Shown here piece by piece: positions 54,001-60,000 of a stretch of DNA of 64,000 nucleotides (the first letter of the stretch is position 1; the number at the start of each line of letters is the position of its first letter). The position numbers are program-made. Location of the stretch: NCBI RefSeq assembly GCF_055900595.2, contig NZ_CM148325.1. One strand, written 5' to 3'.

Positions 54001-57000
54001 ATGAATCTGAACTGCAGCTGCAGGACGCCCGGGAGCTGCTCGACTGGCTCATTGAGGAGTGCCGCGGAGAATGCCCGCCCCGTGTCAGGAAAAATTATAT
54101 TCTCCAGTGTGGCCCGGGCCGGTTCCGGAACAGGAAAAAGCTGAACGTCCTGCTGAACATTCTTGCATCTCAACTCAGGCTCTCTGTCGTGCAGGAAGGA
54201 AAAACCACCTATGTCCTGCTTTCCGAAATAAACAATATCACGCTGCCTGAACTGAATGCGTGCTACAGCCAGAAACTGATAAGATGGCATGAGCAATCCT
54301 TTGGCTTATAATGTTCCCTGTTGCTGAGACGGATTATTCAGTGGTGGTATCGCAGTATGCCCGTCACCCCCGCTTCTGCATGAGGGTGACGGAGGAAAAG
54401 TAAGTGTGCGGAGGCCCGGGAGCGTTATGAATCAACAGGCGTATAACAGGTACTCGTCAATCATCAGTTCCAGCTCGCGCTTTTCCCGTTTGCGCGCCAC
54501 AGCCCAGTTTTCAAGCTCTGCATGTGATTTATGCTTTAACTCTTCAGTCCAGGGCTGCATGGAGTGGGCACACATCAGATCATACCAGCACAGCCATATC
54601 AGCGTGTGGTAGAGATCACGATCGTCGAAACGCCGGAGCAGGCTGTTCAGCCTGTTTGCCAGCCGGTTTTCACCCAGACGATGTAGCTCACTGAGTAAAA
54701 CGCCGCCCAGATTAAAATGTGTAAGCAGCATGATTTCATGGGTCTGAATGCTGGTCATTAACCCTTCCTGAATGGCAGGAATGAACGGTGGTGTTCCCGG
54801 GTTGACGACCTGATAGAGTCCCTGTGGTGCCACTGAGATGATGGTGCCTTTTTCTGGCAGAAAAAAGTGGGCCAGGGTCAGGCGGTGATAACCATGAAGA
54901 TGCGGAGCCCCCATTCCATGAGCGACGATAAGCCTCGTCACGTTTGTCATCCATTTCTGATGCTGGATGAGCAGCAGCTCACACCGGTTTTCAAGTTTTT
55001 GCATAATATTCTCTCCTTTAGCGCGCAGCAAAATGCCTCCGGGGGCCGGATCATGCCTTTGCTGCGGTTGAACGGATAACGGTCAGGAATTACGGACGGG
55101 ACTGTGTAATACGTGCCTGCAACCAGGCTTCCACTTCACTTTTCAGCCATCGGGAGCTACGGCCCAGTTTGATGGGGGCAGGAAAGGCACCATCCTTGAT
55201 GAGCTTGTAAAACCATTTATCGGTCAGGCCGGTCAGCTGAGTGATAAACGACATGTCGACCATCTGGTCATCCATCAGTGAAACTGGGGTATTCATGAAA
55301 ATGTTCCTCCGGATGTTGTTAATCTCAACCGGCGTTGGTGATGAAAACAACGCACCACCTTCCCCGGCATAACAACCGGGGAAAAACGTAAAAAATAATC
55401 GGGAATGTGACCGTCAGGAGATAAACGGGGGGATTGCGGTGGCTGAGCCGTACCGGTATGTCGGGTGATTGTTGCGAAACGATGCTTCCGCACGCGCACG
55501 TGATAAAGGAGGGAGGACTTTCGTGAGACAAGGGGAAAACTGGCGTTCTGATAATTGCAGAGTTGTTTTTGAAGGCGGTTGTGGTGCATCAGCCCGTGAC
55601 CTGTGGGCAGGCGACAGGTATCACTGGTGGGATAAGACTGTCTGATTGGTATTATAAATATATAAGAGAGCTCAAACACATGAGTTCATATATGTGAAAT
55701 AAATCTGTGAGTGTGATCAGCAGACCAGTCTACCCAGTAGCAACAGATTGCGTTGTACTCACAGGGTTATCCCTGATAACTGGCGTATAACCTGCGTACA
55801 TAAAACGTACCTGCAATGCACCTGAACAGAGTGCATTAAGCATCCGCCTGAGCGGTAAACGTATCCGATCTGGTGAGTGACAGTCTGAGAGCATTCTCAG
55901 TAATCGCCCCCTTGTATCCTGGAAATTGGTTAAGATAACAGCGATTAGATTTGGCAAGGTGTATGCAGCCAGCAGCTTAACATCTCAGCTAACTGGCTGG
56001 TTACCTTCAGGTTGTCGCAATGGCATCGGACATCCGGTGTCGGATAACTAAACGTAGCGTTAAGGCGATATTGCTGAGAGACCGGTTAAGTGGTTGCACG
56101 GGAGTAATGAGTTTGGGGAGGGTACCAGAATGTCAGTCTGGTGCGGTATGCTGGCAGTATCACGTTGATTACAGCATAAAGTAACGAGAGACGAATGGAA
56201 GTTAAAACCAGAGCAGTTCCGTCGTTGTTCATCCCGGGAGACGCTGGAAAAAGTGATTTCCCACACACGTTATAAACTTACCCCTGCGGAGCTGGAAGCC
56301 TTTAACTCTGCGGTCGATCACCGGCTGGCAGAACTGACAATGAACAAACTTTACGATCGCGTGCCGGCTTCCGTCTGGAAATATGTCACCTGAATCTTGA
56401 ATCCGCGCTACGATGACTCCGGTGTTATCTGTGCACCGGAAGATCGGGAACATTAAGCAGTATAACGGCAACAAAGAATTCGAAATCAAAAGGGAATGGT
56501 GTACAGAGGGGCAGGCGTTCAGGCATTACCGGCCTGTATCTTCTGAAGGGGACTCGTATTTGTCGGGGCTGAGTATTCCGCTCGATTCGATCACGGATTG
56601 GCGGAATACCTGACTGTGATTGATTCAGGTACCATTTTGCAGGGAGCCGGTGCGTTACTGTCTGGCACAACAAACGCAGCGGGTCGCTCTGCCCCGCCGA
56701 TTCCTGATAATCCCTCCTCTGTAACCTACTGCAACAGTACAAATACACTGACGCCTGAAACGGTAACCAGAATCAGCACCAGCAGTAACGTCAGTAAACA
56801 GAGCAGACGATCGGTCTTCCGGTAATAACCGAAGGGGTCGACAGCGCCACAATACGGGCAACATACTGTATTATGAGTAATTGCGTTACCACAGTCCCTG
56901 CACTTCTTTTTGCATATCACGATCGCTCCCTCTCCACGCCTTATCCGTAACCTGTTTTTTACATTAAAAAAACAACGCCGGGAATTCAATCGTCAGTCCG

Positions 57001-60000
57001 GCGATGACCGTTCGGGTTATCACAGAGTGCCTGAGACAGTGTCCTGCCGGAGGTCACCTCAGGGGCTCTGCGCATTTTTTACGACGTGGTTATTCCGTAT
57101 GAACCATACGGAGATTTAACCATGACCTACAAATACAACCCCTTCTGGCAGCAACGTATTCGTGAGACGGTGCGGCACGCACTGAATGTTCATTCCCGCC
57201 TGACGGCATTGCGGGTTGACCTGCGTTTCCCGGATGTACCGGCAGCAACGGACGCAGCTGTGATATCCCGCTTCATCAATGCCCTGAAAGCCCGAATCGA
57301 CGCTTACCAGAAACGTAAGCATCGGGAAGGTAAACGCGTGCATCCCACAACCCTGCATTACGTCTGGGCCCGGGAGTTTGGGGAGTGCAAAGGTAAAAAA
57401 CACTATCACCTGATGCTGCTGGTCAACCGGGATACCTGGTGTCGTGCCGGCGATTACCGCGCTCCGGGATCACTGGCCGGGATGATTAAACAGGCGTGGT
57501 GCAGTGCCCTGGGAGTGGATGCCGGACGTTATGACACGCTGGCACATTTTCCGGTCAGGCCGGCGGTGTGGCTGGAACGCGATGATGACACCGGCTTTCA
57601 GCAGGTGCTGGAGCGTGCTGACTATCTGGCGAAGGAGAGTACCAAAGCTTACGGCACCGGTGAGCGCAACTTTGGCTGCAGTCGTGGCTGAGCCCGACAG
57701 ACGACTTATCTGACCTTAGTGTGATGACGTGTTCACAGCGACCACACTGATTTTCCCTTCTGAGACTGAACTGAAAACCGCCATTCACACCTGACCACGC
57801 TGCCCGTACCGGGACGGCTGTTGCCTGTGTGTCGTCTGGCGCAGAGGAACATATACTATGTACGCAAAATCTTTTCTCGCACTTGATGGCAACGGACGTC
57901 TGACCGGTGCCCGTACCGCACAAACTGCTCCTTATGCCCACTACACCTGCCACCTTTGCGGCAGTGCACTCAGATACCACCCGCAATACGACACCGAACG
58001 GCCCTGGTTTGAACACACTGACGACGGGCTGACGGAGCACGCGCAGCAATGTCCTTATGTCAGGCCGGAACGCAGAGAAATACGGTTGATTAAACGTCTG
58101 CAGCAATTCGTCCCGGATGCCTTACCCGTGGTACGTAAAGCCAGCTGGTACTGCAGGCAATGTCACCACGATTATTATGGGGAGCAGTACTGCACACACT
58201 GCCAGACCGGGCGTTTCAGTGAGGAGGGGGTAGCAGAATGAACGGTATAAAAACGGGGCTGGGGATCACGCCGGGTGAGCACATTATCAGTGCCGACTCT
58301 GCGCTCAGCAGAAATATCCGGCATTGTTTCTGCCTTTCCTGTCATGGCCGGTTGATTCTGCAGACAGATGCTCAGGGGGCGTGGTTTGAGCATGATTTAC
58401 ATGCCCTGAGTGAGCAACAGAAGGGTAAGCGTGCAGCAAAAACCGTATTGACGGGGATGTGTTATTCAGTCGGCAGTGCTACGCGCCAGGGGAGCAGTTC
58501 GCCGACCCGGTTTATCGGCCAGTCGGCTATGACGTCAAGGACATAGCGGAGGTAGCTTTCTGGCTCCACTCCGTTCAGTTTGCACGTCCCGATCAGGCTG
58601 TACAGCAGCGCTCCCCGCTCTCCTCCATGATCCGAACCGAAGAACAGGTAGTTTTTGCGGCCCAGACTGACCATCCGCAACGCATTTTCAGCGATGTTAT
58701 TGTCCGCCTCAGCCCAGCCATCATCTGCATAGTACGTCAGCGCCGGCCACTGGTTCAGGGCGTATGCGAACGCTTTCGCCAGTTCTGAGTGTCGCGACAG
58801 GGTTTTCATCTTTTCACGCAGCCAGCTTTCCAGGGATTTCAGCAGCGGTTTCGTTTTCAACTGACGTTCGGCAAGGCGCTGCTCCGCCGTCATTCCCCTT
58901 ATCTCTGCCTCGATGGCGTACAGTTCGCCGATCCGTTTCAGCGCTTCCTCCGTCAGGGCTGACGGGGTGCGAACGTGCACATCGTGGATTTTACGGCGGG
59001 CGTGAGCCCAACAGGCGGCTTCCGTTATCCGGCCATCCCGGTACAGCTCGTTGAACCCGGCGTATGCATCCGCCTGCAGTACACCACTGAACCCCGCAAG
59101 ATGGGTCTGCGGATGGATGCCTTTTCTGTCCGGGCTGTAAGCGAACCACACCGCCGGCGCCAGCGTTGACCCGGCGTTACGGTCGTCACGAACGCAGGTC
59201 CATAACCGCCCGGTCTTCGTTTTCTTATTGCCTGGCAACAGCACCGGGACAGGCGTGTCATCAGCATGGAGCTTACCGTCAGTCAGCACATAGCCATGAA
59301 GCGCCTCTTCCAGCGGAGACAGCTGCCGGCAGCATGCATCCACCCAGCCCGACAGCAGTGAACGGCTCAGCTCCACACCTTGCCGGCCGTATATTTCTGA
59401 CTGGCGATACAGCGGGGTGTGCTCTGCATACTTCGAGGTCAGCACGCGGGCCAGCAGCCCCGGTCCGGCGATACCCCGCTCGATGGGCCGCGAAGGTGCA
59501 GGTGCCTGCACGATGGCATCGCACTGAGTACAGGCATGTTTTTCCCGTACCGTCCGGATAACCCGGAAGGCGCTACGCATCAACTCCAGCTGTTCGGCGA
59601 TATCCTCGCCCAGATAGCTCAGTGAACCGCCGCAGTTCGGGCAGCACGGCGCCGCAGGCAACAGTCGCTTTTCGTCACGGGGTAGTGATTCAGGGAACGG
59701 CTTACGGGTGCGGGTCTGACGCAACGGACGCTGTACTGCCGGGTCATACACCCTACCAGTCAGCGTATCGCTCTCTTTCTGAAGCCGGTTCAGATCGGCT
59801 TCCATTTGTGCGATACGGCGGGAGACTTTTTCGGAACGACTGCCGAAGTTCATCCGGCGGAGTTTATCCAGCTGCGCCTGCAGATGGTCTATTTCGCGCT
59901 CCCGGTTGCTCAGCTTTTCCTGCAGGGCGTGGATCAGCGCTTCCTGTTCGGCCAGGCGCTGTTTCAGCAGGAAAATGTCGTCAGAAGAGATGTCGTTCAT

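Follow-up and report, generated by a model that had tools for sequence, protein, structure and literature searches.

A frameshifted hha2-type gene and a small predicted zinc-ribbon membrane protein gene in a backbone module of Escherichia coli genomic islands

Introduction

What is encoded in a gene-poor interval of a genomic island of Escherichia coli, between an alpA-like gene and a yfjJ-like gene, where the original prediction, made from the sequence alone, had found only a plausible protein tail and one small open reading frame (ORF)? The interval covers positions 55300-57120 (1821 bases) of a window of 64,000 nucleotides (nt) from contig NZ_CM148325.1 (assembly GCF_055900595.2), and the ORF list agrees with the prediction in that no long ORF with family support lies between the two genes. 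The interval is very probably an island module that consists of a dead paralogue of the regulator Hha, a real and selected gene for a small membrane protein and, for the rest, non-coding DNA. The evidence for the two genes is given first, together with the readings under which the one would still be alive and the other already dying, followed by the non-coding DNA and the island context.

A frameshifted Hha paralogue

The short frame near 56200-56390, which had been described as a plausible protein tail, belongs to the Hha/YmoA family. The frame that ends at 56393 is open from 56169, and it matches the Pfam family HHA (PF05321) with E=2.6e-27 and 95.3 bits against a cut-off of 25 bits, over positions 3-57 of the 57 in the profile; the NCBIfam model Hha (NF008191) gives 97.5 bits against a cut-off of 90, so that both scores lie above the curated cut-offs. 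What the window lacks is a full gene, with about 70 codons that can be translated from a start of their own. The first ATG, GTG or TTG in the frame is the GTG at 56253. The earlier remark that the tail has no ATG is correct within the frame, but an ATG exists at 56195, out of frame through a deletion of 14 base pairs (bp).

The intact counterpart is a protein of 70 amino acids (aa) encoded at the same locus in the O104:H4 strain 2009EL-2071. The first six codons from the ATG at 56195 are common to this allele and the window, with one A/G difference (AGA vs AAA) that gives the N-terminus MEVKTR in the window and MEVKTK in O104:H4, and downstream of the deletion the two alleles differ in 1 of 59 residues. 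The missing bases lie just past codon 6 and encode (K)EDWLY, which aligns to TKTDYLM in helix 1 of E. coli Hha (PDB 1JW2, 2MW2, 4ICG). Because the missing codons align to solved Hha structures, the 14 bases are ancestral coding sequence and the window carries a deletion. The ATG at 56195 is useless for the Hha frame because the deletion shifts the frame, and translation from it ends after 26 codons, at 56275.

Structures of the H-NS co-regulators Hha, YmoA and YdgT (Cnu) were compared (PDB 1JW2, 2MW2, 4ICG, 2K5S, 2JQT). The intact O104:H4 allele aligns end to end with the solved Hha and YmoA structures and residue for residue with residues 7-71 of the core Hha (E=4e-22), a core segment of 16 residues being nearly identical. 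In contrast to the core gene, the copy in the window is a horizontally acquired paralogue that is frameshifted and has lost its helix 1 codons. Judged from these alignments, the protein tail is an hha2-type Hha paralogue, and the term decayed island gene suits it well, given its 14-bp frameshift deletion and its pseudogene flag in RefSeq. Besides shifting the frame, the deletion after codon 6 removes the codons of helix 1 (EDWLY), and the function of an Hha co-regulator would be lost from this copy.

The deleted allele is annotated in three ways in RefSeq: as a pseudogene in Nissle 1917, as a 74-aa protein starting at TTG in ATCC 25922 and as a 49-aa protein starting at CTG in 2014C-3097. In the Hha frame, the codon next after the upstream TGA is TTA in the window and TTG in ATCC 25922. 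It is because of this TTG that ATCC 25922 has a 74-aa "Hha" in RefSeq, and because the TTG is a TTA here that the window is left without a usable in-frame start. In 2014C-3097, a TAA stands directly upstream in the Hha frame.

Frequency and origin of the deletion

Alleles were counted with a 140-nt query across the intact 5' end, taking the best copy in each genome; 2156 genomes matched. The best copy was 80-90% identical in 1471 of these genomes, and the listed matches in this band span 126 nt, which is the deleted form, while the best copy was full length in about 570-690 genomes. By this count, the deleted allele appears to be the sole form in about two thirds of the E. coli genomes that have an hha2-type gene.

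Among 11 sampled alleles, the deletion is found on at least three flanking haplotypes, one of which has upstream sequence identical to that of an intact allele, and no microhomology was seen by eye at the deletion junction. Because there are several haplotypes and no junction microhomology, we infer one old deletion that would have spread by recombination among island copies. Independent recurrence of the same 14-bp deletion is unlikely, as no flanking microhomology was seen. Other hha2-type lineages decay independently, through a 1-nt deletion in strain H3 and through several deletions in the O55:H7 copy.

Constraint on the deleted allele

A rival reading is that the deleted allele still makes a working Hha-like protein with an altered or shortened N-terminus, whether from the GTG at 56253 (46 aa), from a non-standard start or by a +1 shift from the native ATG. 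The frame is open over 59 codons with nearly the whole HHA profile kept (positions 3-57 of 57), the deleted allele is the majority form, RefSeq calls a 74-aa or a 49-aa protein from the same allele in other strains, and the pooled ratio of non-synonymous to synonymous polymorphism (pN/pS) among deleted alleles is 0.16. However, no ATG, GTG or TTG stands in frame before 56253 in the window, and five of the seven sampled deleted alleles have a TAA directly upstream in frame, where the window and ATCC 25922 have GAA. The starts chosen by RefSeq, a TTG without a Shine-Dalgarno sequence and a CTG, look like annotation fallbacks, and no recognisable +1 frameshift site was found on reading the sequence by eye only. 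Whatever the start, the helix 1 codons are gone.

The polymorphism itself, in a small sample of 11 alleles only, separates into two classes. Polymorphisms shared between alleles, deleted and intact ones included, comprise 14 synonymous and 2 non-synonymous changes, whereas the changes private to deleted alleles comprise 9 synonymous and 11 non-synonymous ones. The private and shared classes differ (Fisher p=0.014), and the private class is indistinguishable from neutral (p=0.065). We attribute the low pooled pN/pS to ancestral polymorphism shuffled by recombination; the pattern fits, within this small sample, relaxed constraint after the deletion. With the evidence of the starts and of the private mutations taken together, a working product of the deleted allele is very unlikely, and the remnant is treated here as a dead paralogue.

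Relation to hha2 and hha3

Island-borne paralogues of hha have been described in enteroaggregative E. coli (EAEC) 042 as hha2 (EC042_4516) and hha3 (EC042_4796), and were linked to pathogenic lineages, with an effect shown on one antigen 43 gene (Prieto et al., 2016; PMC4864382). Intact Hha2 and Hha3 are small co-regulators that act with H-NS and modulate an antigen 43 gene, and their genes were proposed as markers of virulent E. coli for the polymerase chain reaction (PCR) (PMC4864382). They have further been tied to the flu-yeeR-irmA cluster (Bernabeu et al., 2019; PMC6480617). The copy in the window has in common with Hha2 and Hha3 of EAEC 042 the Pfam HHA family and an island setting beside flu/agn43-irmA. 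In Nissle 1917, the same island has agn43 and an IrmA family gene at a distance of about 6-13 kb from the hha remnant, with flanking insertion sequence (IS) elements, which places the remnant in an acquired region linked to the flu-yeeR-irmA cluster. It differs from Hha2 and Hha3 in its 14-bp deletion and in having no in-frame start, and it cannot make the 70-aa protein.

The published primers allow the alleles to be compared directly. The O104:H4 allele matches both hha2 primers exactly and the YD786 allele matches both hha3 primers exactly, while the window allele has one mismatch to 4516F, two to 4516R, none to 4796R and five to 4796F. By its sequence, the window allele is a mosaic in which the 5' end and the upstream DNA are hha2-like and the 3' end is hha3-like. 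All published hha2 and hha3 primer sites lie downstream of the deletion, and therefore the published PCR cannot tell intact from deleted alleles. The words "pseudogene" and "truncated" are absent from the main texts of PMC4864382 and PMC6480617, and in neither paper was it found stated that the frameshifted hha2-type allele is in the majority and escapes the published marker PCR.

A small gene with a predicted zinc ribbon and membrane anchor

The second object of the original prediction was an 87-aa ORF at 56726-56989 on the minus strand, with a zinc-ribbon signature and a transmembrane (TM) tail. The ORF exists and both of its features are confirmed, as CxxC-x9-CCxxC followed by a hydrophobic tail. 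The conserved gene, however, encodes 65 aa: homologues start at the codon at 56923, and the extension to 87 aa is not coding because its 22 upstream codons, which are not conserved, cross 1-nt indels in other copies. The suggestion of a small unannotated protein was right insofar as the gene is real and under purifying selection, but RefSeq already annotates it as WP_032144956.1.

Cysteines C8, C11, C21, C22 and C25 of the window's protein are nearly invariant in 21 homologues and would form a zinc ribbon with two cysteine knuckles (CxxC ... CCxxC) in the N-terminal 26 residues. The family consensus MVIRKKKCRDCGNAITHNTVCCPYCGSVDPFGYYRNTDR is followed by a hydrophobic tail of about 25 residues that occurs in three diverged versions. 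Over codons 2-39 (38 codons), the ratio of non-synonymous to synonymous substitution rates (dN/dS) is 0.03-0.10 between intact allele classes, at synonymous rates (dS) of 0.29-0.70, and 0.13-0.32 against the decaying copy of 2014C-3097. The tail has a dN/dS of 0.4-1.65 (up to 2.8 against the decaying 2014C-3097 copy) and yet is hydrophobic in all three allele classes. Since the zinc-ribbon half is under purifying selection while the tail stays hydrophobic, this is a real protein, and the codon alignments are strong evidence that the zinc-ribbon half is its constrained functional part. This clear selection signature of the small zinc-ribbon protein was not found stated in PMC4864382 or PMC6480617.

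AlphaFold2 places a helix at residues 35-64 with a predicted local distance difference test score (pLDDT) of about 90, the ribbon part being uncertain, and 19-residue hydropathy windows from residue 40 onward reach 2.6-3.0, in keeping with a predicted single C-terminal TM helix. Positive charges precede the helix and only 1-3 residues follow it, and for this reason the protein would have a cytoplasmic N-terminus and be tail-anchored in the inner membrane.

The start codon of the window's copy casts doubt on its expression. Codon 56923, an ATG preceded by GGAGGGAG in five other copies, reads ATC both here and in ATCC 25922, and it is conceivable that the gene in the window is itself decaying, being expressed poorly or not at all since the ATG became ATC. 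A change private to the window (R4C) points the same way, and decay of this gene is seen elsewhere, with frameshifts in YD786, HS and E423 and with loss of cysteines in 2014C-3097; in O104:H4 (L002:2998-3171), the second cysteine knuckle is gone through an in-frame deletion of 30 nt. Against this, the codon directly after the ATC is a GTG (56920), preceded by GGAGAGGGAG, with GGGAG 5 nt upstream, and beyond the start the coding sequence is undamaged and nearly the same as in widespread alleles. Decay in the window is thus rather unlikely, and the small protein is probably still translated from the GTG at 56920. RefSeq annotates the protein from the ATC despite the non-ATG codon. The O104:H4 copy, which has a different C-terminus, is still annotated as a 57-aa protein.

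A word-indexed search returned 62 proteins, from E. coli, Shigella, Salmonella and Klebsiella, and an exhaustive profile search of 1.84 billion representatives gave only 25 at E<1e-10, the others being generic weak matches. The Pfam zinc-ribbon families PF13248 (13.9 bits vs a gathering threshold of 27) and PF10571 (15.3 vs 29) scored below their thresholds, and weak matches were obtained to phrog_38187, phrog_14275 and phrog_10292, none of which has an assigned function. What the small protein has in common with these PHROG and Pfam families, in weak matches to residues 5-56, is a CxxC...CxxC pair and one TM helix; members of the PHROG families have 136-178 aa and extra C-terminal domains, whereas the family in the window has about 65 aa and is found only in island DNA of E. 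coli, Shigella, Salmonella and Klebsiella. PADLOC gave no match for the small protein, nor for the neighbouring yfjJ-like, YfjI-like, zinc-ribbon and 190-aa proteins. A role in a defence system was set aside, as PADLOC produced only weak helix-turn-helix-type matches, to the alpA-like gene.

The small gene would thus encode a membrane-tethered protein with a cytoplasmic zinc ribbon, translated from the GTG at 56920, and it invariably separates the Hha paralogue from the yfjJ-like (inovirus Gp2-type) gene. Our best guess is a small membrane-tethered factor of the island that may act in binding or exclusion.

A probable alpA-like leader and other non-coding DNA

The remaining DNA, about 1.2 kb, has no recognisable gene remnants. 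It is non-coding DNA, conserved in thousands of E. coli island copies, with a short relic of an IS110-family end. Its parts are the probable alpA-like promoter and leader, the DNA upstream of hha, and a segment of 189 bp with the IS110 relic.

Of 5426 E. coli genomes, about 3450 have region A, which adjoins the alpA-like start. Identity among eight diverged copies is 78-96%, and the frames are broken by indels of 1, 2, 6 and 13 nt. RefSeq annotates an ORF here in YD786 and PMV-1, which was rejected as a gene because it is split over two or three frames in other copies. The minus strand has an invariant TATAAT at 55656-55651, and conservation runs on downstream to the alpA-like start; by this pattern, region A is probably the promoter and a leader of about 350 nt of the alpA-like gene.

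Such conservation could also be that of a working small RNA or of a cis-regulatory RNA structure encoded in the non-coding DNA (55297-56194, 56394-56725 or both). Invariant blocks persist in copies that are otherwise 78-90% identical, even where the flanks have been replaced, and in the consensus fold of 55297-55385 (minus strand) an anti-Shine-Dalgarno sequence, GTTTCTCC, pairs with the alpA-like ribosome-binding site GGAGGAAC around nested invariant helices. The fold finds no covariation support in RNAalifold across the eight copies, however, the covariation term being positive (+1.74) and nearly all pairs invariant, and folding energies are ordinary (z=-1.8 for the single-sequence fold of the alpA-like leader, and -0.3, +0.6 and +0.6). 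A search of 54900-57300 with the covariance models of Rfam 15 at E<=1 gave a single match, at chance level, to a model of a human long non-coding RNA (E=0.99). An apparent double change from CCGG...CCGG to CCAG...CCAG, moreover, breaks the pairing. This change falls in a direct repeat, CCGGT...CCGGT, at 55333-55350 (minus strand, CCGGTTGTTATGCCGG) in the alpA-like leader, which has changed in parallel to CCAGT...CCAGT in O104:H4; the repeat resembles a recurring protein-binding motif more closely than a stem of RNA. An RNA function of this DNA is therefore improbable, and a promoter and leader remain the better description of region A.

In other strains, insertion sequences lie in or beside region A. 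An IS3-family element stands next to the alpA-like start in O55:H7 and the IS110-like ISEc20 within region A in PMV-1, and in strain 13C1079T region A abuts a cbtA/yeeU remnant, without the alpA-like gene.

Region B (55673-56194) goes with hha2-type alleles, hha3-type copies having unrelated sequence in its place. It holds the 189-bp segment, which the window shares with ATCC 25922 and which is missing from four other copies in alignment A2; about 833 genomes have it in full. Inside the segment, 68 nt (55903-55970) have an IS110-family counterpart in E. coli HS, where the matching sequence begins some 185 nt ahead of the transposase gene; identity is 88% to this sequence and 81% to the corresponding position of an element on plasmid p1540-4. 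The match thus covers the first 68 nt or so of the left non-coding end in both IS110-family elements and is oriented as their transposase genes are. Unlike these elements, the segment retains just one third or so of the left end and lacks both a recombinase gene and a right end. The similarity ends after 55970, and no transposase gene or family match follows in the stretch; an IS110-family element would have a left end, a DEDD-type recombinase gene and a right end. As far as the alignments go, positions 55903-55970 are a relic, not an element, and the 189-bp segment as a whole was ruled out as a complete miniature IS110 element, as only 68 nt match. The left non-coding end of IS110-family (IS621-type) elements encodes a bridge RNA (Durrant et al., 2024; PMC11208160), and from its position the matched 68 nt would lie within the bridge RNA region. 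Rfam gave no bridge-RNA family in reference IS copies.

Between the convergent hha remnant and small gene, a block of about 56 nt (56446-56501) is kept in all six aligned copies despite indels of 14 to 66 nt in its flanks. It has no coding pattern and an unremarkable fold (z=+0.6); substitutions in it affect mainly the first and second codon positions of a 66-aa ORF that overlaps it, and a stop interrupts this ORF in one copy (A2, by reading). This ORF (56413-56613) was rejected as a gene: it has no match in Pfam, NCBIfam, PHROG or PADLOC, and its frame is not kept across copies. Ten further ORFs of the stretch had no Pfam match. The divergent intergenic region 56924-57121 presumably holds the promoters of the small gene and the yfjJ-like gene. 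A scan of the stretch for terminators found none that was convincing.

Island context

The whole stretch is 100% identical to the chromosomes of Nissle 1917, ABU 83972, clone D i2/i14 and many others, and parts of it are present in 3741 of 5426 complete E. coli genomes, at a median of two places per genome. The same gene order is seen at ten independent loci, and on this evidence the stretch is a conserved backbone module of many E. coli CP4-44/flu-type genomic islands. The module runs from the alpA-like gene (minus) through probable leader and promoter DNA, the hha2-type gene (plus) and the zinc-ribbon gene (minus) to the yfjJ-like gene (plus). The island of Nissle 1917 also has agn43, an IrmA family gene, a cbtA/cbeA pair and K5 capsule genes. 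Searches with blastn and tblastn against CP4-6 and CP4-57 of K-12 gave no match, and because of this the small-protein data for K-12 do not apply here.

The features of the stretch and its surroundings are collected in Table 1. An IS66-family element cuts short the second of two overlapping zinc-ribbon genes beyond the yfjJ-like gene, and in E. coli HS an IS110-family element lies between the equivalents of the two. Elsewhere in the window, Rfam models above their gathering thresholds mark an IS102 RNA (50308-50513, minus strand, 250 bits), the Hfq-binding RNA isrN (26888-27030, plus strand, 124 bits) and a JUMPstart element (13996-14034, plus strand, 58 bits).

Table 1. Features of the stretch and its neighbourhood; positions are those of the window, except for loci of other genomes (L numbers).
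Feature	Position	Strand	Details and source
YfjI family gene			First in the RefSeq order, Nissle 1917
190-aa hypothetical gene		minus	RefSeq, Nissle 1917; between the YfjI family gene and the alpA-like gene
alpA-like helix-turn-helix gene	55090-55296	minus	RefSeq, Nissle 1917
Region A, conserved non-coding block	55297-55672	minus	Adjoins the alpA-like start
189-bp segment	55885-56073	plus	7-bp direct repeat CTGAGAG at 55885-55891 and 56074-56080
IS110-family left (5') non-coding end relic	55903-55970	plus	68 nt, inside the 189-bp segment
Native hha2-type start and out-of-frame reading	56195-56275	plus	26 codons, MEVKTRAVPSLFIPGDAGKSDFPHTL*; ORF list
14-bp deletion site	between 56213 and 56214	plus	AAGACTGGCTGTAT missing; alignments A1 and A2, 11-allele alignment
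Hha frame remnant	56214-56393	plus	59 codons and stop
"hha, pseudogene, missing N-terminus"	56214-56393	plus	RefSeq, Nissle 1917, exactly these coordinates
Conserved block of about 56 nt	56446-56501		Between the convergent hha remnant and small gene
65-aa zinc-ribbon and TM protein gene (predicted)	56726-56923	minus	RefSeq WP_032144956.1; homologue alignments
65-aa hypothetical protein WP_032144956.1	56726-56923	minus	RefSeq, Nissle 1917
Divergent intergenic region	56924-57121		Small gene to yfjJ-like gene; highly conserved, 1-nt indels
yfjJ-like gene, "inovirus Gp2 family" (YagK/YfjJ)	57122-57691	plus	RefSeq, Nissle 1917
Two overlapping zinc-ribbon genes (DUF7828 and Zn_ribbon_11)	57858-58546, 58462-60036		3' of the yfjJ-like gene
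RefSeq-called deleted alleles in other genomes	L004:3308-3532, L003:2595-2744		Compared with window 56169-56393
IS insertions in or near region A, other genomes	L007:1218-2431, L012:572-1768		

Conclusion

Taken as a whole, the stretch is ordinary and largely already annotated, containing a regulator of a known island kind, flagged by RefSeq as a pseudogene, and an annotated hypothetical protein. Several points weigh against the description of it as a dead Hha paralogue, a selected small membrane gene and otherwise non-coding DNA. The pooled pN/pS of the deleted alleles could, taken alone, suggest that the frame is still used. A consensus promoter scan of the stretch found fewer promoter-like sites than in shuffled controls, and none that was convincing. 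The small protein is without a characterised homologue, with weak matches only (PHROG and sub-threshold Pfam). Finally, the loss of Hha function, the promoters, the leader and the GTG start are all deduced from sequence.

A bolder reading would make the small protein a functional partner of the island's replication and regulation module and, at the same time, have the hha deletion spread as an adaptive pseudogene. If the former were true, the protein could serve as a regulator tethered to the membrane, as an exclusion factor or as a small toxin, and its fast-changing tail would reflect diversifying pressure; if the latter, loss of an extra Hha copy would be advantageous and would have been moved by gene conversion between island copies. 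Both together are improbable, and the plainer description of the module is preferred.

The stakes are modest, and they concern how the gene content of E. coli islands is read. The presence of an hha2-type gene by PCR or BLAST does not mean that a functional regulator is present; strains that carry the frameshifted form include the probiotic Nissle 1917 and the asymptomatic-bacteriuria strain ABU 83972, and the inconsistent annotation of the deleted allele in RefSeq could mislead studies of gene content. The small zinc-ribbon membrane protein, for its part, is conserved, selected and uncharacterised, which makes it a clean candidate for small-protein study.

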